Part shown: one piece after another, positions 4,669 to 52,041 of the stretch
Numbering within the stretch: position 1 is the first letter of the stretch
Layout of the letters: each line of letters starts with the position of its first letter
NCBI RefSeq assembly: GCF_035084215.1
Contig: NW_027138407.1
Span: forward strand, 1,426,001 to 1,490,000
DNA: 64,000 nt
Source of the DNA: Heptranchias perlo
Taxonomy: Eukaryota
Direction of reading: 5' to 3'
Made by a program: the position numbers and the translations under genes
The notes under the pieces: generated by a model
Databases searched by the model: none
What the model saw: only the letters and a program-made list of their open reading frames with translations
What the model was told of the DNA's origin: nothing

Positions 4669-4711
4669 ATGGGAATCCTCCTTGTTTTCATCCTGTGTGT
4701 CTATTTACCCC
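4669..4711 (+). CDS. NAR-TCR V1 leader exon (MGILLVFILCVYLP)
   Basis: Hydrophobic signal peptide with a phase-1 GTGAGT donor at 4712. Confidence 0.92.
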
Positions 4712-4857: not shown

Positions 4858-5146
4858 GCTCTTTCGGTCAGTCAGTGGTACAGACCCCGGATGCGGTAAC
4901 TAGGAAGGAGTGCCAGTCTCTCACCATCACATGCGTTTTCTGGGGAGGGTTTTTTAAACGTCCTTTAGTGAGTGGGGAATTCTTCAGACAAAGGCAGACC
5001 GGCACAGAGTGGGAGCCGATCAACGGCGGAGGACGATTTGTTACTTCGACGAATACCGAAGAAAAGACGTTTCGGCTGGAAATTAGGGACGCGAGAGTTG
5101 AAGATAGCGCCACTTATTACTGTAAAGCAAAGTACAAGTATGATAA
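4858..5146 (+). CDS. NAR-TCR V1 (IgNAR-like V exon)
   Basis: TTTCCAG acceptor; QSVVQTP..KECQSLTITC..FFRQ..GGRFVTSTN..FRLEIRDARVEDSATYYCKA matches the IgNAR V layout (no CDR2 strands, GGR[Y/F]V motif); extra FR1 Cys as in NAR-TCR; followed by an RSS. Confidence 0.93.
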
Positions 5147-5184
5147 CACAGTGATGGGTCTCGGCTCCCCGTGATACAAAAACT
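5147..5184 (+). promoter_or_regulatory. 23-type RSS of NAR V1 (CACAGTG, 22-bp spacer, ACAAAAACT)
   Basis: Read directly. Confidence 0.95.
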
Positions 5185-5534
5185 CTCACTGCAGATTGTC
5201 ACGGAAACAAATGAAAAAACGGATTTAATCTGCGATTAAACCCAACAGATCCGCCTCGCACCTTCTGCCCCACAATCTAGTTAATAATAAGCTTGGATTA
5301 TTACAGTCAACATTTTGTGTTTTATAAATACGGATTCTGTGCGGATAATGTCTTTCCTGGGATTGGTGTCAATGAATGGCGATTGGGATTGACTGATCCC
5401 ATTTACAAGTCCCTTGCACCAGATGGGATCCTGTTCTAACAGCTGGAACCGAGATCCGCAATCCCCACCGTTTAACTAATGTCCCCGCATATCACCAAGC
5501 ACCGGGGGATTTTATGCTAACTTGAAGTACTGTG

Positions 5535-5548
5535 TTGATTGGGATAAT
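5535..5548 (+). CDS. NAR-TCR D1 (TTGATTGGGATAAT) flanked by two 12-RSS
   Basis: 5': GGATTTTAT-12-TACTGTG (5507-5534); 3': CACAGTG-12-GCAAATACC (5549-5576); conserved in copy 2. Confidence 0.88.
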
Positions 5549-5938
5549 CACAGTGGAAGAGACCTCAGCAAATACCTCTGTACAATTAAAATATCAATTC
5601 TCCCGGCCCGGATCCTGAATTGTAGGTTTGATGTTATTATCGCTGTAATCTGGATTGATTTTATTGCAAATTCCTGCTTTCAGTGATCTTTCTTTGATTT
5701 TTTTTCCGTTTATGTTAAACGCCCATCTCCGGCCCGTGTACCGGGGCCATTTTACAAAGAGCTGAGAGTCTCAGAAAGAAGAGTTTGAAACGACTGGGAC
5801 TGTGAAACATGGAATGTTGTTCATTGATGTAAAATCCCTGGAATAATTGGGCAGCGTGGACTCTATGCTGATGTGTGACCAGCAGATTGAGGTGTCTGTG
5901 GTTCTTGTACAGGGGTGACTGAGAGCGGTGTCACTGTG

Positions 5939-6001
5939 GTGATAATAAATGGTATGATGCTTATGCGGATGGATCCGGGACAGTGGTGACCGTCACAGCC
6001 G
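5939..6001 (+). CDS. NAR-TCR J1 (DNKWYDAYADGSGTVVTVTA)
   Basis: 5' RSS GGTTCTTGT-23-CACTGTG (5900-5938); IgNAR/IgH-like GxGTVVTV; phase-1 GTAAGT donor. Confidence 0.92.
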
Positions 6002-8044: not shown

Positions 8045-8355
8045 ATTCCAGTTTATCTGTGTCCCAGAGATTGCCTCGACAAACCTCTACTGCCGGTGAC
8101 ACCGTTACTATAAGTTGCGAATATTCAGGGCTCTGTCAGTACACAGTGCAATGGTACCGTCGGTGCCTATGGCAGGCTCCGAAATACCTCCTACAGAGAC
8201 ACACTTCAGGAGAAGGGAATAATGAAAACGCTGCCGGGGGCCGAATTTCTGCTTCTATCGATCCTACCGAGAAAACCAGCCGGTTAATTATCTCCAAATT
8301 ACAACTGAGTGACTCCGCTGTGTATCTCTGTGCACTGAGTCCGCGCACCGATACA
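8045..8355 (+). CDS. NAR-TCR supporting TCR-delta V1 (leaderless, CDR1 Cys)
   Basis: TTTTATCCTGCAG acceptor in phase with NAR J; TISCEYSGLCQYTVQWY..LQLSDSAVYLCALSP; no leader exon found between NAR J and this exon; RSS CACAGTA-24-ACAATAACC at 8356-8395. Confidence 0.9.
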
Positions 8356-8690
8356 CACAGTAGTTTGAGTCTGCTTAAGTGGTCGTACAATAACCTCCCA
8401 CCCACACAGAACGGTTCAACAACATTCTCAACACTCCCAGGAAGGTTTGGTTCCAATCCAGCAACGTTTACCCCCGGACCCTTACCGTTTTACATTCTGT
8501 TCATTTTGCAATTTTATTTCCCCTGGATATTTATTGCTGTGATCACATTGCGGGAACGCTCCAAGACCGCCAATGCATAAAGACATGACTCGTAAGCTTA
8601 CTAGTTCTATCCTTCAGGAACAAGCGAATCAGTTACTGGGAGATGTGGAGGAGATTCCTAGTGATCTTTTTACAAGATTCAACGATATGT

Positions 8691-8751
8691 AACATTAGGC
8701 GACAAGAAAAGTTCACGTTTTGGAATGGAAACAGGCTGATTTTGAATCCCT
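8691..8751 (+). pseudogene. J-delta a, pseudo (KFTFWNGNRLILNP)
   Basis: J-like motif with FGxG changed to FWNG; degenerate heptamer GATATGT; GTAAGT donor. Confidence 0.65.
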
Positions 8752-8867
8752 GTAAGTATCAACTCCTCAATTTGGTCTCTCTCTCAACAACTTCTTTTAC
8801 TAATTGGAGCCTTATTTTTAGTTATATTTATACATAACCGTTATATTTTTACATAACAGCATTAGTT

Positions 8868-8918
8868 GGGTGATAAGCTGATATTGGGAACTGGGGAACT
8901 GATAGATTGTGCAACGGG
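8868..8918 (+). pseudogene. J-delta b, frameshifted (DKLILGTG...)
   Basis: J-like start, frameshift, GTAAGT donor; the paralog at 47713-47768 is also frameshifted. Confidence 0.6.
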
Positions 8919-9226
8919 GTAAGTAGATTTGTGTCTTCTTTATCTCAATTCACGGCGGTTTCGTGTGTGATGCAAAGTTAGGGTCTATCCCTTCAACTGA
9001 CATTAAGCCCTTAGCACGAACACACACGTATGCACTGGAGGGAGACCTTTCACTGACCTGCGTGTGTAACGGCGAAAGACAATTAAGCAACACTTCGAAA
9101 GATATCCAGGAGGTAATTCAGCAAGATGGGGCCACGATCTAAGCCCCTGGTGCTTCTATTAAGCTACAGTCCAGACAGTTTACAGCCCTCTTGGAACAGG
9201 TTTCTGTCTGTTCAGCTGTTAATGTG

Positions 9227-9292
9227 CAGGATGTTGGCAAACTACCACTAAACTAATATCTGGAAATGGGACCAGAATTATTTTAGAAACGG
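9227..9292 (+). CDS. J-delta c, open frame but non-canonical (GCWQTTTKLISGNGTRIILET)
   Basis: 12-RSS GGTTTCTGT-12-TAATGTG (9199-9226); FGxG changed to SGNG; GTAAGT donor. Confidence 0.75.
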
Positions 9293-9537
9293 GTAAGTAA
9301 AATGTAAGGATATTGTCTCGTTCTTCCTCTTGTAGACACGTGTTTGCCTTCTGGTGAATATTGGTAGAGGGACCAGGTATCTATTATTAAATTGCGGTGA
9401 GGATAATTTTCCCCATTTACAGGGGTTTGCGGTACCCAGTTCGCTTTTCCAACAACGTGTCCACTTTCTGCTGCGATGAGGTGGAATTAGACCTGGTGGC
9501 GCTGTGCGGGTTTTACAGCTGGGTACTTATCACTGTG

Positions 9538-9599
9538 TGGATTAGGGGATGCTGCTGAACTAACATTTGGAAACGGAACTGAAGTGATTGTAGAGCCAA
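9538..9599 (+). CDS. J-delta d, canonical (GLGDAAELTFGNGTEVIVEP)
   Basis: CACTGTG heptamer at 9531 with a 12/13-bp spacer and GGTTTTACA nonamer; FGNG motif; phase-1 GTATGT donor. Confidence 0.9.
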
Positions 9600-10230
9600 G
9601 TATGTAATATTTAAACACATTACTCGTCCTTTTGTAACAATAGAAGACGCATGGCATGTGGTATCTGCTAATTATGGGCGGACGAGTCGGTTAACGGTTT
9701 TTAGAAAGAAATAAACAAAGAACGAAAGATTTCCATGTAAATCGCGCCTTTCGCTACCTCAGAACGTCTGAAGGCGCTTTATAACCAATGAAGTACTTTA
9801 AAAGTGTGCTCACTGTTGTAATGTAAGAAACCCGGCAGGCAATTTGCTCACAGCAAGGTTTGACAAACAGCGATGTGATAATGACCAGATAATCTGAAGC
9901 TTTCCCCTTCAAATCAGACGCAATTTTCCAGCGATTATGCGAGAGTATACATTATTTCCATAAAGATAATAAATAGGATTCAATTGAGACTTTTACTCTA
10001 TCCGCATATCCGCGAGGGAAAGGAAACCAGCGGTGGCTTCAGTGTCTGCCGAATCATTCCAGATGTTGCTTGTTGAATCATTACTCCAGGATTAATATAG
10101 GGGGCCTTAAATCATTGCAAACACATTGAATATTTGAGACGTTGTGTTGTGTTCCCATTTATTTAGTGCAGGACATGAAGAAATTTGCAGATGTGCATAG
10201 ATTGGCCATTTTTAAAAATTTAACACCGTG

Positions 10231-10294
10231 TACGGCGGTGGATATACAGATGTTCTTACGTTTGGAAATTGAACCTTGTTCAGTGTAGACTTGA
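10231..10294 (+). pseudogene. J-delta e, pseudo (YGGGYTDVLTFGN*TLFSVDL)
   Basis: CACCGTG heptamer at 10224; in-frame TGA in the FGxG motif, shared with copy 2. Confidence 0.75.
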
Positions 10295-11184
10295 GTGCTT
10301 TCAAATAGCCCCTGTCTCATAATCATGAATTGCAAAAAAAAAGTAATCTAGATTCACAGGTCATTGTGCGCTATTTTGCGATCAATGTACGTTTAGATAT
10401 TATGGGTTGGATTTCTCTCGCAAAAGCCAACCTCACACAAGCACAGCTAATCCGTAAAACCCCAATTATCTGATCCCGTGAATTGTGTTGTTTCATGGAA
10501 TTGAACCAGTAATCTACATTTGATGGAAAAAAACAGGAAATAACATTTTTATGGAGGGAACTGGAGTCAATGGGTTCAGATACGTTTGCCTCATTATCTA
10601 AGGATTTGAGCAACTAACATTTTTACGAGGCGTCATTAATTTAAAATATCCACTAAGGGGAGGGAGATGAGAGAAATTTCTGTGAACAGAGTTATTGGAA
10701 AATTGGATGTTTTTGAACAGGGAATGGTTGAGGGTTTTTAAATGATGAAAGGATTTGACAGGGTAGATAGAGAAATACTAATTCCTCTGGTGGGGGAGTC
10801 CAGAACAAAGGGGCATAATCTTAAAATTGGAACTAGGCCGTTCAGTGGTGATGTCAGGAAGCACTTCTTCACACAAAGGGAAGTGGAAATCTGGAACTAT
10901 GTTGAGGCTGGGGGTCAATAGAAAATTTCAAAACTGGGATTGAAAGATTTTATTAGGCAAGGTTGTTAAGGGTTCCGGTACCAAGGCGGGTAAATTGAGT
11001 TAAGACATAAATAAGCCATGATCTTATTGAATAGCAGAACAGGCTCGAGCGGATGCTTTTTAAAAAAATATGTGTGGACTATTATTTTATTATCGAATGT
11101 CATTATTAGTCATTTATAGATCTACCACTGTGCTCACATTGATGAATTCTGAACAGTTTTCCCGTTCTATTCTTTAATTTTCAG

Positions 11185-11505
11185 AGGACAAAACTCCGAA
11201 AGAGCCAACCGTGTCGGTCTTTTACCCGCCCGTGATACAAAATGGGGACGGGGACAGTGCCGATACGGTGGCGGTATGTCTGGTGTCGGAATTCTCCCCC
11301 AAGGAGATTGGGCTCTTCATGGATACGATCACTGTCCCAAAGACCAATGTCACGAGATCCAGTCACTTATTGAACAACGGGTATTACAGGAGCTCAGGGT
11401 TCCTCTCTTTCAATTCATCCAAACAATCAGTAAATGTCACGTGTGAGGCAAGACATAGGGCTCAATCTTTCTATGCAAAACGCGACAGCCAGGATTCTGC
11501 AGCCG
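11185..11505 (+). CDS. TRDC: TCR delta-type constant region exon 1 (Ig C1 domain), cassette 1
   Basis: TTTTCAG acceptor; PTVSVFYPP..AVCLVSEFSPKEI..YRSSGFL..VTCEARH with both Cys; GTGAGT donor; position downstream of NAR-TCR and supporting V implies delta. Confidence 0.85.
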
Positions 11506-11530
11506 GTGAGTAATAAAATGTTTCATAAAT

Positions 11531-11985
11531 AAAGAACTTGCATTTATAAAGTGCCTTCGACGGTCTCAGGAATTCCCAAAGCGCTTTACTTTCAATTAAG
11601 TATTGTTTGACGTGTAAACACAGTTGTAATGTAGGGGAACGCGGCAGCCAATATGTGCACAGGGAGATCCAACAAACAAAGCAATGTGATAAATGACCAG
11701 TTAATCTGTTTGAGGGATAAATATTGACCGGGACACCGAGGAGAACTTCCCTGCTCTTCTTCGAAATAGTCCCGTGGGATCTTCTGCATCCACTGGAGAG
11801 GACAGACGAGGCTTCCGTTAAACGTCTCAACCGAAAGACGGCACCTCGTACAGTGCTGCGCTCCCACAATACTTCCACTGGTAGTGTCGGCCTAGATTAT
11901 GGTCTCAAGTCCCTCGCGTGGGATTAGAACCAACAAACTTCTGATACAAAAGCCAGAGTGCTACCATTGAGCCACGGCTGACACA
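11531..11985 (-). mobile_element. tRNA-derived SINE in C intron 1 (similar copies at ~18615-19030 and ~50900-51360)
   Basis: Minus strand begins GTGTCAGCCGTGGCTCAATGGTAG (A box) with a GTTC B-box-like motif; dispersed copies in the window. Confidence 0.7.
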
Positions 11986-12157
11986 ATAATCGAAGGCCGA
12001 CTGTGATCAATAATAGGATGAAGAATCAATACTGCTACTTTGTTATTACTTCCTCCATTATTACTACCAGTAACGATAATAATAACAGTGATAATAATAA
12101 CGACAAAGCAACAACAAAGTAACTTACTCAATAAATCCTTTACATGTTTGTTTGCAG

Positions 12158-12229
12158 GCCCCGGCAGAAAGCCTGATTGTGGAAAACGTTCAAACAATTC
12201 CAGAGCAGGAATAAAGGACACGGAAACAG
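12158..12229 (+). CDS. TRDC: TCR delta constant exon 2 (connecting peptide GPGRKPDCGKRSNNSRAGIKDTET), cassette 1
   Basis: TTTGCAG acceptor, GTCAGT donor, phase 1/1; contains the interchain Cys. Confidence 0.85.
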
Positions 12230-12435: not shown

Positions 12436-12545
12436 ATCGACCGAGGGTGAATTTTCTGTCTTTGACCGTGTTGGGATTGAGAGTTCTCTTTTTGAAGTGC
12501 GTTGCTTTCAATGTCCTGCTGACGGCCAGAGTGTGGTTATTTTAA
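12436..12545 (+). CDS. TRDC: TCR delta constant exon 3 (TM/cytoplasmic DRPRVNFLSLTVLGLRVLFLKCVAFNVLLTARVWLF*), cassette 1
   Basis: TCR alpha/delta TM signature with intramembrane R and K for CD3 assembly; TAA, then G and a GTGAGA donor. Confidence 0.9.
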
Positions 12546-19955: not shown

Positions 19956-20998
19956 CATAGAAATAGAAGCATAGAAAATAGGAGCAAGAGTACGCCATTC
20001 GGCCGCTCCGGCCTGCTCCACCTTTCAAAATGATCATGGCTGATCGTCTGACTCAGTATCATGTTCCCGCTTTTTCCCCATATCCCTTGATCCCTTTAGC
20101 ATTAAGAAATATATCGATCTCCTTCTTGAAGACATCTAATGACTTGGCCTCCATTGCCTTCTGTGGTAGAGAATTCCACAGGTTCACCACCCTCTGAGTG
20201 AAGAGATTTTACCTCATCTCGGTTCTAAATGGCAAACCCCGTATCCTGAGACTGTGACCCCTGGTTCTGGACTCCCCATCCATCGGGAACATCCTCCCTG
20301 CATCTAGTCTGTCTATTCCTGTCAGAATTTCATATTTTTCGATTAGATCAACTCTCATTCTTCTAAACTCTCGTAAATGTAGGCCTAGTCGACCCAATCT
20401 CTCCTCATACGTCAGTCCTGCAATCCCATGAATCAGTCTGGTAAACCTTACCTGCACTCCCTCCATGGCACGGATATCCTTCCTCAGATAAGGAGACCAA
20501 AACTGCACACAATACTCCAGATGTGGTCGCACCAAGGCTCTGTATAACTGCAGTAAGACATCCCTGCTCCTGTACTCACATCGTCTTGCAATGAAGGCCA
20601 ACATACCATTCGCCATTTCTTTGTTCCCCATTATAATTTCCCCCATTTCTGGCTGGAAGGGACCTACATTTGTCTTCACTAATCTTTTTCTCTTGACATA
20701 TTTATAGAAGCTTTTACGGTCAGTTTTTATGTTCCCTGCTAGTTTACTCTCATACTCTATTTTTCCCCTCTTAATCAATCTCTTTGTCCTCCTTTGCTAA
20801 ATTCTGAACTGCTTACAATCCTCAGGCCTGCCGCTTTTTCTGGCAATCTTATATGTCTCCTCTCTGGATCTAATACTATCCCTAATTTATTTTGTAAGCC
20901 ACGGTTGAGCCACCTTTCCTGTTTTATTTTTGTGCCAGACAGGAATGAATAATTGTTGTAATTCCTGCACACGTTCTTTAAATATTAACCATTGCCTA
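19956..20998 (-). mobile_element. CR1-type LINE fragment (ORF2 C-terminus and 3' tail, internally deleted)
   Basis: ORF 20209-20778 LYRALVRPHLEYCVQFWSPYLRKDI..SRTRGHSL is typical of CR1 ORF2. Confidence 0.88.
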
Positions 20999-44001: not shown

Positions 44002-44044
44002 ATGGGAATCCTCCTTGTTTTCATCCTGTGTGTCTGTTTACCCC
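44002..44044 (+). CDS. NAR-TCR V2 leader exon (MGILLVFILCVCLP)
   Basis: TATA upstream; GTGAGT donor at 44045. Confidence 0.92.
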
Positions 44045-44189
44045 GTGAGTACCGTTCAACCAAACGGACTTTGTGTGAATTTAATACAAAGCAGCCCGAG
44101 TCCATCCGAATTGCAGACGCTGATACGGTTTTAGCCCCGTTGTGTGGTTCGGCTTTAATGGCTCATTAAACTCTCTGTTTAATTTCCAG

Positions 44190-44482
44190 GCTCTTTCGGT
44201 CAGTCAGTGAAACAGGACCCGAGAGCGGTGACCAAGAAGGAGTGTCAGTCTCTCACCATCACCTGCGTTTTCAAAGGGCATTCTTTCTATAACTATTATT
44301 TTGAGCGTGGTGAATTCTTCCGACAAAGCCGGTCCGGGACAGAGCGGGAGCGGATCTCCAGCGGAGGACGATTTGTTGCGTCAACGAATCAGGCTAAAAA
44401 TATGTTTTCTCTGGAAATTCGGGATGCGAGAGTTGAAGATAGCGCCACCTATTACTGTAAAGCCCACTACAAGTACGACGAC
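44190..44482 (+). CDS. NAR-TCR V2 (IgNAR-like V exon)
   Basis: QSVKQDP..KECQSLTITC..FFRQ..GGRFVASTN..DSATYYCKAHYKYDD; RSS CACAGTG-22-ACAAAAACT (44483-44520). Confidence 0.93.
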
Positions 44483-44862
44483 CACAGTGATGGGTCTCGA
44501 ATACCCATGTTACAAAAACTCTCACTGCAGATTGTCACGGAAACAAATGAAAAAACGAAGTTTATCTGCGATTAAACCCAACAGATCCGCCTCGCACCTT
44601 CTGCCCCACAATCTAGTTAATAATAAGCTTGGATTATTGCAGTTAACATCTTGTGTTTTATACATAAGGAGAGTGTGCGGATTCCTGGGATTGGTGTCAA
44701 TGAATGGCGAATGGGAACGACTGATCCCATTTACAAGCCCCTAACACCAGATGGGATCCTGTTCTAACAGCTGGAACCGAGATCCGCAATCCCCGCCGTT
44801 TAACCAATGACCCCGCAGATCACCAAGCACTGGGGGATTTTATGCTGACTTGAAGTACTGTG

Positions 44863-44876
44863 TTTATGGGGACAAT
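44863..44876 (+). CDS. NAR-TCR D2 (TTTATGGGGACAAT) flanked by two 12-RSS
   Basis: GGATTTTAT-12-TACTGTG and CACAGTG-12-GCAAATACC. Confidence 0.88.
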
Positions 44877-45263
44877 CACAGTGGAAGAAACCTCAGCAAA
44901 TACCTCTGTACAATTAAAATATCAATTCTCCCGATCCGGAACCTGAATTGCAGGCTTGATGTTATTATCGCTGTAATCTGGATTAATTTTATTGCAAGTT
45001 CCTTCTTTCAGTGATCTTTGACATTTTTCTCCGTTTATGTTAAGCGCCCATCTCCGGCCGGTGTACCGGGGCCATTTTACAAAGAGCTGAGAGTCTCACA
45101 AAGAACAGTTTGAACCGACTGGGACTATGAAACATGGAGTGTTGTTCATTGATGTAAAATGCCTGGAATAATTGGGCGGCGGGGACTGTCTGGTGATGTG
45201 TGACCAATAGATTGAGGTGTCGGTGGTTCTTGTACCAGGGTGACTGAAAGCGGTGTCACTGTG

Positions 45264-45326
45264 GTGAATATAGATGGAAATATTATGATGTGGATGGACC
45301 CGGGACCGTGGTGACCGTCACAGCCG
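45264..45326 (+). CDS. NAR-TCR J2 (EYRWKYYDVDGPGTVVTVTA)
   Basis: GGTTCTTGT-23-CACTGTG (45225-45263); GTAAGT donor. Confidence 0.92.
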
Positions 45327-46921: not shown

Positions 46922-47232
46922 ATTCCAGTTTATCTGTGTCCCAGAGATTGCCTCGACAAACCTCTACTGCCGGTGACACCGTTACTATAAGTTGCGAATA
47001 TTCAGGGCTCTGTCCGTACACAGTACACTGGTACAGTCAGTGCCCAGGGCAGGCTCCGAAATACCTCCTACAGAGACACACTTCAGGAGCAGGGAATAAT
47101 AAAAACGCTGCCGGGGGCAGAATTTCTGCTTCTATCGATCCTGTCAAGAAAATCAGCCGGTTAATTATCTCCAAATTACAACTGAGTGACTCCGCTGTGT
47201 ATCACTGTGCACTGAGTCCGCGCACCGATACA
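46922..47232 (+). CDS. NAR-TCR supporting TCR-delta V2 (leaderless, CDR1 Cys)
   Basis: TISCEYSGLCPYTVHWYSQCPGQAP..DSAVYHCALSP; RSS CACAGTA-24-ACAATAACC (47233-47272). Confidence 0.9.
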
Positions 47233-47557
47233 CACAGTAGCTTGAGTCTGCTTATGTGCTCGTACAATAACCTCCCACCCACACAGAACGGTACAACAAC
47301 ATTCTCAACACCCCCAGGAAGGTTTGGTTACAATCAAGCAATGTTTATCCCAGGACCCTTATCGTTTTTCATTCTCTTTATCTTGTAATATTATTTCCCC
47401 TGGATATTTATTGCTGTGATCACATTGCGCGAACACTCCAAGACCGCTGGCGAATAAAGACATGACTCTAAGGCTTACCAGTCCTATCCTGAGAATCAGT
47501 TACTGGGAGATGTGGAGGAGATGCCAAGGGATCATGTTACAAGATTCAACGACATGG

Positions 47558-47768
47558 GACATAAGGCGACAAGAAAAGCTGACGTTTTGGAATGCAACCA
47601 GCTAAACTTTGGAACCCATTAAATATCTACTCCTCAATTTGGTCTCTCTCTCAACGCTTTCTCCTTTTACTATTCAGCGGTTTATTTTTAGTTATATTTT
47701 TACATAATAGTGTTGGGTGGGTGACAGCTGACATTTGGAACCCGGTACCAGATTGATTGTGCAACGAA
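47558..47768 (+). pseudogene. J-delta a and b pseudogenes, cassette 2
   Basis: KLTFWNATS* with donor lost; QLTFG followed by a frameshift, then GTRLIVQR. Confidence 0.6.
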
Positions 47769-48092
47769 GTAACTCGATTTGGGTCTTCTTTACCTCAATT
47801 CAGGGAGGTTTAGTGGATGATACAAAGTTAGGGTCTTTCCCTTCAACTGACATCCAGACCTTAGCACGAACACACACCTATGTACTGGAGGGAGGTGTTT
47901 CAATGACTTGCGTGTATAACGACGAAAGACAATTAAGCAACACTTCTAAACATGTCCAGTACGTAATTCAGCAAGACGCGGCCACAATCTAAGCCCCTGG
48001 TGCTTCTTTTAAGCTACAGTCCAGACAGTTACAGCACTCCTGGAACACTACATGTGTTCTCCGTGGTTTCTGTCTATTCAATTGTTAACGTG

Positions 48093-48158
48093 CAGGATAT
48101 TGGGATACTATCTCTAAACTAATATTCAGAAGTGGGACCAGAATTATTATAGACCCGG
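48093..48158 (+). CDS. J-delta c, cassette 2 (GYWDTISKLIFRSGTRIIIDP), non-canonical FRSG
   Basis: GGTTTCTGT-12-TAACGTG; GTAAGT donor. Confidence 0.75.
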
Positions 48159-48403
48159 GTAAGTAAAATGTAAGGATATTGTCTCGTTCTCCCCCCTTTT
48201 AGACTGGTGTTTGCCTTCTGGTGAATATTGGTAGTGGGACCAGGTATCTATTATTAAATCGCCGATGATATGATTTGCCCCATTAACGGGGGTTTGCGGT
48301 ACCCAGTTCGCTTTTCCAACAACGTGTCCTCTTTCTGCTGCGATGATGTGGAATTAGACCTGGTGGCGCTGTGTGGGTTTTTCGCTGGGTACTTATCACT
48401 GTG

Positions 48404-48465
48404 TGGATTAGGGTATACTGCTAAACTAACATTTGGAAACGGAACTGAAGTGATTGTAGAGCCAA
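48404..48465 (+). CDS. J-delta d, cassette 2, canonical (GLGYTAKLTFGNGTEVIVEP)
   Basis: GGTTTTTCG-12-CACTGTG (48376-48403); GTAAGT donor. Confidence 0.92.
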
Positions 48466-49010: not shown

Positions 49011-49074
49011 TTTGGCGGTGGATATACAGATGTCCTTACACTGGAAAATTGAACCAAATTCAGTGTAGAGTTGA
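49011..49074 (+). pseudogene. J-delta e, cassette 2, pseudo (FGGGYTDVLTLEN*TKFSVEL)
   Basis: GGTCCTTGT-12-CACCGTG; in-frame TGA. Confidence 0.78.
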
Positions 49075-50553: not shown

Positions 50554-50874
50554 AGGAGAAAACTCCGAAAGAGCCAACCGTGTCCGTCTTTTACCCGCCT
50601 GTGATACAAAGAGGGGACGGGGAGAGTACCGACAAGGTGGCGGTATGTCTGGTGTCGGAATTCTCCCCCAAAGAGATTGGGCTCTTCATAAATACGACCA
50701 CTGTCCCAAAGATCAATGTCACGAGATCCAGTCACTTATTAAACAACGGGTATTACAGGAGCTCAGGGTTCCTCTCTCTCAATTCATCCAAACATTCAGT
50801 AAATGTCACGTGTGAGGCAAGACACATGGCTCGATCTTTCTATTCAAAACGCGACAGCCTGTATTGTGCGGCTG
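50554..50874 (+). CDS. TRDC: TCR delta-type constant exon 1, cassette 2
   Basis: Same 321-nt exon as 11185-11505, open frame; ends SLYCAA (new Cys). Confidence 0.85.
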
Positions 50875-51668
50875 GTGAGTAATAAAATGCTTCATGGAAG
50901 AAAGAACTTGCTTTGATAACGGGCTTTTCACACTCTCAGGAATTCCTAAAGCGTTTTACATGCAATGAACTACTGTTTGAAGTGTAGTTTCTGTTGTAAT
51001 GTAGGGAAACGCGGCAGCCAATATGCGCACAGGGAGATCCCACAAACAAAGCAATGTGATAAATGACGAGTTAATCTGTTTTACTGGCGTTGGTTGAGGG
51101 ATAAATATTGACCAGGACACCAAGCAGAACCCCCTGCTCTTCGAAATACTTCTATGGGATCTTTTATACCCACCGGAGATGCCAGACGGATCCTCGGTTG
51201 AACATCTCATCCGAAAAACAGCACCTCCTGCAGTGCAGCGCTTCCGCAATGCTGGCATTGGTCGTATCAGCCTCCATAATGGTCGCAACTCTCTGGAGTG
51301 GGATTTGAGCCCAAAACCTCTGATAGAGAAACCAGATTTCTACAACTGAGCCACGGCGGATACAATTATCGAAGCCCGACTGTGATTAATAATGGGCTAA
51401 GTAATCAATACTAAGTAATCAAGGCTATGGACCAAATGCTGGAATATGGGATTAGAGTAGACAGGGCTGATGGCCGGCGCGGACACGATGGGCCGAAGGG
51501 CCTCTATCCGTGCTGTATGACTCTATGACTCTATGACAATACTACTGCTTTATTATTACTTCCTCAATTACTGCTACAAGTAACCATTATAAAAACAGTG
51601 AAAATAATGACAACAATAGCAACAACAAGGGAATATAGACAATAAATCATTTAAATGCTTGTTAGCAG

Positions 51669-51753
51669 GTCCCGCCAGAAAGCCAGATTGTGGAAAACGT
51701 TCAAATAATTCCAGAGCAGGAATAAAGGGCGCGCAAATGTTAAAAATGTTTAG
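51669..51753 (+). CDS. TRDC: Constant exon 2 (hinge), cassette 2; normal splice donor deleted
   Basis: GPARKPDCGKRSNNSRAGIKGAQMLKMF; about 14 nt containing the GTCAGT donor are missing relative to copy 1; next strong-looking donor is AG/GTAAAA at 51754 (phase 2). Confidence 0.7.
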
Positions 51754-51931
51754 GTAAAAGGCAGACAGGCAGAAAAAAATATAAATAGATAGATACCTAG
51801 ATTAATGTATACTAGCCAGCTAGATAGATAGAGCAATACATTCCAATTTTTTGTTACAGAAATATTTATTTCAGTGAAATACAGTGGGCTTGTTTAACTA
51901 AATAAACACTTTAATTTGATAATTATTACAG

Positions 51932-52041
51932 ATCTACCGAGGGTGAATTTTCTGTCTTTGACCGTGATGGGATTGAGAATTCTCTTTTTGAAGTGCGTTG
52001 CTTTCAATGTCCTGCTGACGGCCAGAGTGTGGTTACTTTAA
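51932..52041 (+). CDS. TRDC: Constant exon 3 (TM: DLPRVNFLSLTVMGLRILFLKCVAFNVLLTARVWLL*), cassette 2
   Basis: Intact acceptor, TM motif with R and K, GTAAGA donor. Confidence 0.88.

Follow-up and report, generated by a model that had tools for sequence, protein, structure and literature searches.

NAR-TCR clusters with private C-delta genes in the shark Heptranchias perlo, and a supporting V segment probably pre-joined to D-delta

In Heptranchias perlo, the TCR alpha/delta locus probably holds a self-contained form of the shark NAR-TCR cluster, with its own J and its own C-delta, in which the supporting V joins a single segment (J d) in one step and D-delta has been pre-joined to that V by RAG. 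That this is a real, expressed variant of NAR-TCR with autonomous clusters is well supported. The literature treats TCR loci as translocons and regards germline joining in sharks as a feature of Ig genes. At this locus a fixed V-D joint appears to be present in a TCR gene, which now exists as six Ig-like clusters with diverged C-delta.

A first-pass annotation of this DNA had described a supporting V followed by five J segments with 12-type RSSs and no D, and had read the arrangement as direct V-to-J joining like that of TCR-mu, in an inner domain that is losing its diversity. The architecture was confirmed, and the direct joining and the likeness to TCR-mu held up; the spacer length, the five 12-RSSs and the absence of D required correction, and neither short junctions nor decay to low diversity fits what was found.

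Organization of the locus

The stretch of DNA analysed (the window, 64,000 nt; G000:C240:1426001-1490000) is part of a cartilaginous-fish TCR alpha/delta locus. It holds two copies of a unit of ~20 kb, in the order leader, NAR-type V, D, J, leaderless V, five J-like segments and three C exons. We name the NAR-TCR cassettes of the genome K1-K6; the two in the window are K5 and K6, and all features given for them below are on the plus strand. The genome has six supporting Vs (75-100% amino acid identity, next-best match at most 45%), six NAR-TCR Vs and seven C-delta Ig exons, six private and one main. The private exons are 84-100% identical to the first copy in the window, and each lies ~3 kb behind a supporting V. 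The main C-delta is 63% identical to the private copy at the amino acid level, with collinear introns, and lies 360-670 kb away. The three sets of six are in register on one contig, which carries the main C-delta and C-alpha as well, and the clusters are dispersed among ordinary Vs in both orientations. Two public gene models of this species called 'TCR alpha chain-like', P0004 and P0044, match K6 and K1, respectively, when compared by eye.

In K5 the leader exon (4669..4711) has an ATG and a GT donor; it was found in five of the six cassettes. The NAR-type V exon (4858-5146; 4858..5184 with its RSS, whose spacer is 22 nt) has an open frame and an extra FR1 Cys. The NAR Vs of all six cassettes have KECQ and FFRQ/FFKQ and an extra a-b loop Cys, and lack the Trp of WYRK. 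The NAR D (5535-5548) has a 12-RSS on both sides (5507..5576), and the NAR J with its 23-RSS (5900..6001) is spliced to the supporting V: the loose contig ends before 8044 correspond to the 3′ end of the NAR J in two runs. The leaderless V occupies 8045-8355, and its copy in K6 46922-47232. Behind the J segments come the private C-delta Ig-domain exon (C1; 11185..11505), which receives the splice from J d, a connecting-peptide exon with the hinge Cys (12158..12229; GT..AG joint 11504-12157 in four of four runs) and a transmembrane exon with R, K and the stop codon (12436..12545); one contig links C1 to the transmembrane exon.

K6 has its leader, NAR V, D and J at 44002..45326, the supporting V with a likely fused D remnant (47228-47232) and a D-type RSS at 46922..47272, J a-c at ~47557-48158, J d with its 12-RSS at 48376..48465, J e at ~49011-49074 and the private C-delta exons at 50554..52041; its J a-c and J e are non-canonical. 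The connecting-peptide exon of K6 (51669-51760) lacks the donor present in the other five cassettes, which has been deleted, and model P0004 skips the exon and so loses the hinge Cys.

Between and after the cassettes the window (25988-63882) contains, in both orientations, two V pseudogenes and ordinary alpha/delta Vs with 23-RSS, the latter at least five in number. VH-like V segments with 23-RSS stand just upstream of the main D-delta (G000:C240:817680-823075); we take them to resemble TAILV genes.

J segments and their signals

Recombination signals were scored with a matrix whose training set was 53 V and 54 J signals from the same locus. Five J segments do lie within 2 kb behind the supporting V, but 12-RSSs on all five could not be upheld: in the window J a and J b have no CAC heptamer, and J e of the first copy scores below the threshold of the RSS scan. 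The defects that the first-pass annotation listed for the individual segments were mostly confirmed and extend beyond the window. J a (8690..8751 in K5), ortholog of the first main J-delta, has FW in all six cassettes; that of K5 has lost its heptamer, and that of K3 has an open frame and a good RSS. J b (8864..8918, approximate limits) is a pseudogene, as claimed, but its damage is no cassette-specific decay, for it is frameshifted and without an RSS in the main delta locus too. J c with its 12-RSS (9199..9292) reads SGNG in an open frame in K5, where its use was not seen, and FRSG in K6; FGxG is lost from J c in all six. J e (10224..10295), ortholog of the last main J-delta, has an in-frame TGA in both window copies; across the six cassettes a stop is found in three and deletions in three.

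J d (9509..9599) alone keeps FGxG, in both window copies and in all six cassettes. It is also the only segment that combines FGxG with a perfect heptamer and a GT donor in each of the six, although its nonamer is weak. The RSS of J c outscores that of J d in both window copies (18.4 versus 10.7 and 16.5 versus 13.9), so the single-J reading rests on the protein motif and on RNA, not on RSS quality. No ortholog of J d stands in the collinear position of the main locus, where its best match, 66% over 85 nt, is another J.

The RSS of the supporting V is of the 23 type, as had been proposed, but with a spacer of 24 nt rather than 23. Spacers of 24 nt were found in six of the 71 Vs scanned, and these six are the supporting Vs. 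The best nonamer of J d is at 13 nt in four of the six cassettes, and joints form in K5 (8356-8395, 9509-9537) nonetheless, which indicates that RAG accepts a 24-nt spacer paired with the weak J d signal.

Somatic joints and expression

The RNA data are contigs from four runs of one sample in one study. Their type, 'RNA', was guessed by a tool, none of the records with matches being registered as RNA, but the joints in the contigs are spliced at GT..AG; contigs drop rare variants. All four V-J joints recovered from spliced contigs of this sample run directly from the supporting V to J d, as had been predicted. J d is spliced to the private C, the NAR J to the supporting V, and splicing of C1, hinge and transmembrane exons was seen. 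No loose end at the V end of these contigs leads elsewhere than J d; the lack of contig coverage at J a-c was not counted as evidence.

The four joints all differ. Each has 4-6 added nt, with 1-3 nt trimmed from V and 0-7 nt from J, and two to four of the five bases that end the V and resemble D-delta stay after trimming. Three are in frame, with CDR3s of 16, 17 and 18 amino acids, so the short junctions expected in the first-pass annotation were not found. In the pieces listed, no difference from K5 occurs in at least two of the joints. Combinatorial choice has been lost from the inner domain and junctional diversity kept.

One of the four junction inserts shares 5 nt with the main D; a D-derived insert was considered and judged to be chance (5 nt, G-rich, one junction of four). 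The RSSs of the outer V, D and J are intact, and no somatic outer joint was found among the matches listed. One contig, from another cassette (corresponding to window 8338-8744), has an unrearranged V-RSS-J a spliced to a private C-delta.

On this evidence the NAR J is today spliced to the supporting V, which joins J d in one step, and J d to the private C. With no leader on the supporting V, one such V and one good J per unit, a unit would make only a three-domain chain and would need nothing from the main D-J-C. The inner domain would keep a CDR3 of normal length and diverse junction that starts with a fixed germline stretch.

The D-delta signal behind the supporting V

The claim that no free 12-D-23 segment lies between the supporting V and C was borne out in all six cassettes by the locus-trained RSS scan, which recovers the main D; the same scan found in the six no second forward 23-RSS paired with a 12-RSS. 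Over 657,218 bases, part of the locus, it returned the main D and three weak pairs. The main locus, in the sequence scanned, has one D-delta, of 15 nt, with a 12-RSS and a 23-RSS. D is nevertheless not gone from the cassettes: its 3′ RSS and five D-like nucleotides stand in the germline, fused to the supporting V.

In K5 the RSS behind the supporting V (8356..8395, 24-nt spacer) is homologous to the 3′ 23-RSS of the main D-delta, with 82% identity and the same heptamer and nonamer. Four supporting Vs share both elements with the main D; K4 differs in the heptamer and K3 in the nonamer. By blastn and alignment, the match to the main D-J-C-delta begins 5 nt ahead of the heptamer in all six cassettes and continues at 71-73% for ~1 kb through J a, b and c. 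Then ~10 kb of the main J array is skipped, at the same place in all six, after which the match takes up again and covers the last J and the C exons. When the genome was searched with the main D region, eight matches came back: itself, the six cassettes and one 57-nt piece on contig C383, with no other copy of D. All six cassettes match from query position 68, which begins the last 5 nt of D, and sequence upstream of it found no match in any of them.

The 60 nt behind the RSS, compared with the D flank, score 35-41 in the six cassettes; among 64 other Vs the mean is 15.3 and the highest score 24. The separation is poorer for the spacer by itself (14-16, against a maximum of 15 in the other Vs). 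Flank and homology together identify the RSS of the supporting V, on sequence grounds, as the 3′ 23-RSS of the locus's D-delta. Only one heptamer occurs within 300 nt behind the supporting V in each of the six cassettes, which is what removal of the V's original signals would leave. The last 5 nt before it (8351..8355 in K5), a likely remnant of D-delta, match the end of D at four of five positions in all six, as do those of one of the 64 other Vs; the six copies have one origin and the match counts as a single event, at ~1.6% by chance.

Origin of the likely V-D joint

The joint is the same in six copies that have diverged by ~13%, and the unrearranged form is also present in RNA contigs. It belongs to germline DNA and is not a somatic product.

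Most ordinary Vs stop 12-17 nt beyond the beginning of the Cys codon (57 of the 71), and the supporting Vs 27 nt beyond it. Our search found 42 homologs of the supporting V, 38 of them readable and from other sharks or rays (one same-species model and three without the motif were left out). A-Q stands at residues 8-9 after the Cys in 21 of the 38, and 18 end there. These models place a V-type heptamer 22 nt after the Cys start, and 22 plus 5 gives the 27 nt seen. Read from its protein translation, model P0022 continues through spacer and nonamer in the 22-nt register; in other species tails of 24, 26 and 27 nt also occur, that of 27 in the sawfish model P0038. From these comparisons we infer that the tail of the supporting V consists of 22 V-coded nucleotides, with the V-coded part of K5 at 8045..8350 by the end point of the 21 A-Q models, and five D-like ones, and that it fits best a RAG V-D joint fixed in the germline.

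With the V end set by the protein models, the junction falls at coding ends: both inner signals (V RSS and D 5′ RSS) are absent and the D 3′ RSS is kept. Such a junction, which meets V at its coding end and D in its interior and has lost the two inner RSSs, has the form of a RAG coding joint, and a germline V-D join by RAG is the likely origin of the supporting V. No more than 5 nt of D would remain, each copy with one mismatch, and there are none of the P or N nucleotides that would prove RAG action. RAG-like germline joining is established for shark Ig genes, with a light-chain VJ coding joint fixed in the germline in the passages of PMC2193156; here the join is partial, V to D, and the gene is a TCR gene.

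The V might instead have come to lie next to the D 3′ RSS without RAG, through a deletion or crossover at the heptamer or close to it, where both RSSs, each 23-type, start with the same CACAG. The five-base match, only four of five, would then be chance, and the native 27-nt tail of the sawfish model suits this account. We think it unlikely, because it makes a coincidence both of that match, so rare among other Vs, and of the exact fit of the commonest homologous tail, 22 nt, and because K1, in the same family, has V and D fused in the manner of a coding joint.

In that cassette the NAR V (G000:C240:1166085-1166043) runs in frame into its own D, to which it is fused with extra nucleotides between; the V RSS and the D 5′ RSS are gone and the D 3′ 12-RSS is kept. 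It is a germline-type join, which counts in favour of a RAG-type join of the supporting V, though it may be a somatic join caught in the assembly. On the 43-kb contig C383 (~19984-20046) the 5′ RSS of the main D-delta stands head to head with the 23-RSS of an ordinary V, 6 nt apart. This is the imprecise signal joint that a V-D rearrangement by inversion leaves, and its source is probably lymphocyte DNA in the assembly.

Under joining by RAG, the supporting V of an ancestral cassette (NAR V-D-J and supporting V) would have been joined in the germ line to the D-delta of the locus, with its end intact, 10 nt trimmed from the 5′ end of D and no need for added nucleotides. The D 3′ RSS would thereby have taken the place of the RSS that the V had before. 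The J array would then have lost ~10 kb, a deletion that all six cassettes share, and the unit would have been copied to six.

Diversity and decay

The first-pass annotation was read as a model in which D was lost as in platypus TCR-mu and decay is turning the inner domain into a short scaffold with almost no variation. That model has on its side that there is no free D, that four of the five Js are non-canonical, and that the germline diversity of the supporting V is lower than that of the NAR V (pN among cassettes 0.085 versus 0.151). The last is mild support for low inner diversity at the germline level, but silent divergence is lower as well (0.082 versus 0.173). The supporting V is open, with its CDR1 Cys, in all six cassettes, and it keeps the D 3′ RSS and flank; the main locus, too, has a broken J b; and four different junctions, with CDR3s of ordinary size and nucleotides added, do not make an invariant scaffold. 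Such a course is very unlikely.

Decay is real at the level of the cassette. Only K2 and K5 look fully intact: K3 has a TGA stop in its NAR V, K4 a +1 frameshift near the end of C1, where an assembly error is possible, and K6 has lost its hinge donor, each lesion outside the V-J region; the supporting V of K1 has no conserved Trp. Among cassettes dN/dS is 1.03 for the supporting V, 0.85 for the NAR V and 0.44 for C1; it did not reveal selection on V or J d.

With D pre-joined to the supporting V, the locus would be a genomic intermediate for the loss of combinatorial freedom in the supporting domain of a double-V receptor, a question raised for TCR-mu, and it suggests that such loss need not shorten or fix CDR3.

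Comparison with known double-V receptors

Nurse-shark supporting Vs use shared D-delta, J-delta and C-delta segments. Here no inner domain built from shared segments was seen, all four joints leading from V to the private J d with the private C. It is scarcely credible that the private J-C blocks are passengers and that the supporting V rearranges mostly to the main D-J-C-delta 360-670 kb away, as the published model of NAR-TCR has it: its 23-type RSS could pair with the 12-RSS of the main D, which ordinary Vs use (the C383 signal joint), one junction has a 5-nt D-like stretch and joints to the main locus would show only as loose ends, but the loose ends at the V end lead nowhere else, every joint is to J d, J d is spliced to the private C, and dN/dS of C1 among cassettes is 0.44.

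The description of NAR-TCR in nurse shark and elephant shark comes from passages of PMC1845163, PMC12227049, PMC5931798 and PMC2275272, and the hallmarks given in those of PMC1845163 are found at this locus. As described there, a NAR V-D-J is followed by a leaderless V-delta with a CDR1 Cys, and the C is of delta type; two separate rearrangements may make the outer and inner domains here as well. Published NAR-TCR has a TCR-delta C and two V(D)J rearrangements, with neither a private J-C block in each cassette nor a D fused to the supporting V mentioned in these passages, and the present locus has six private C-delta and one somatic join for the inner domain. In passages of PMC2275272, PMC12227049, PMC5931798, PMC6795676, PMC3149040 and PMC3964593, NAR-TCR is said to use the TCR-delta C, and private C genes go unmentioned. 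In table S1 of PMC12227049 the label 'gj' is given, without detail, to one NAR-TCR model from the great white. No report of a private C-delta or a fused D in NAR-TCR appeared in the titles and passages of the literature searched. Pairing of NAR-TCR with TCR-gamma is put forward as a hypothesis in a passage of PMC6795676. A private C could separate NAR-TCR T cells from other gamma-delta cells by primer or antibody.

The analogy to TCR-mu holds further than the first-pass annotation had claimed, in that each cassette has its own C. As in opossum TCR-mu, in the passages of PMC2275272 and PMC3457774, there are tandem clusters each with its own C, a double-V chain and germline joining in the supporting domain. 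The opossum supporting V, however, is fully pre-joined (VDJ) and invariant, whereas here only V and D appear to be joined and V-J joining is somatic and diverse. Opossum TCR-mu Vs are VH-like, and here the outer V is of NAR type, the inner V is closest to alpha/delta Vs (41-45%) and the clusters lie inside the alpha/delta locus, not in a separate one. Platypus TCR-mu also builds its supporting domain by direct V-to-J joining (passages of PMC3457774), but its D segments are lost and its CDR3 is short, whereas here a likely D remnant and its RSS are kept and the CDR3 is longer. By this comparison the locus works like TCR-mu, in its cluster layout and simplified supporting domain, without being a member of it, since the V types differ and it lies in the alpha/delta locus.

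In gene models of another shark, Mustelus, from five scaffolds (P0020, P0026, P0035, P0036 and P0041), NAR V-V is joined with C regions of at least two types, a hint that a private C-delta recurs there, although haplotype duplicates are possible. In a C-domain tree built without C-alpha the seven C-delta of our genome form a group with support of 94/90, and five Mustelus rows form another with 92/92; neither node is starred, and the inside of the first group is poorly split; the tree with C-alpha as outgroup collapsed. This grouping suggests an independent C-delta duplication in Mustelus. Homolog searches with the C domain were insensitive (2 and 4 matches), and for C-delta copy number in other sharks the analysis covers the Mustelus models only.

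We put forward tentatively, as possible but somewhat short of probable, that sharks independently evolved a TCR-mu-like locus: a germline V-D join by RAG would have captured D-J-C-delta and led to autonomous clusters with a dedicated C-delta, and this would have been repeated in the distant shark Mustelus. If so, double-V receptors would tend repeatedly toward a cluster layout with a partly pre-joined supporting domain, and the locus would be an intermediate between nurse-shark NAR-TCR and opossum TCR-mu.

In models P0005 and P0009, each from another shark, a pair of NAR V-J units precedes the supporting V.
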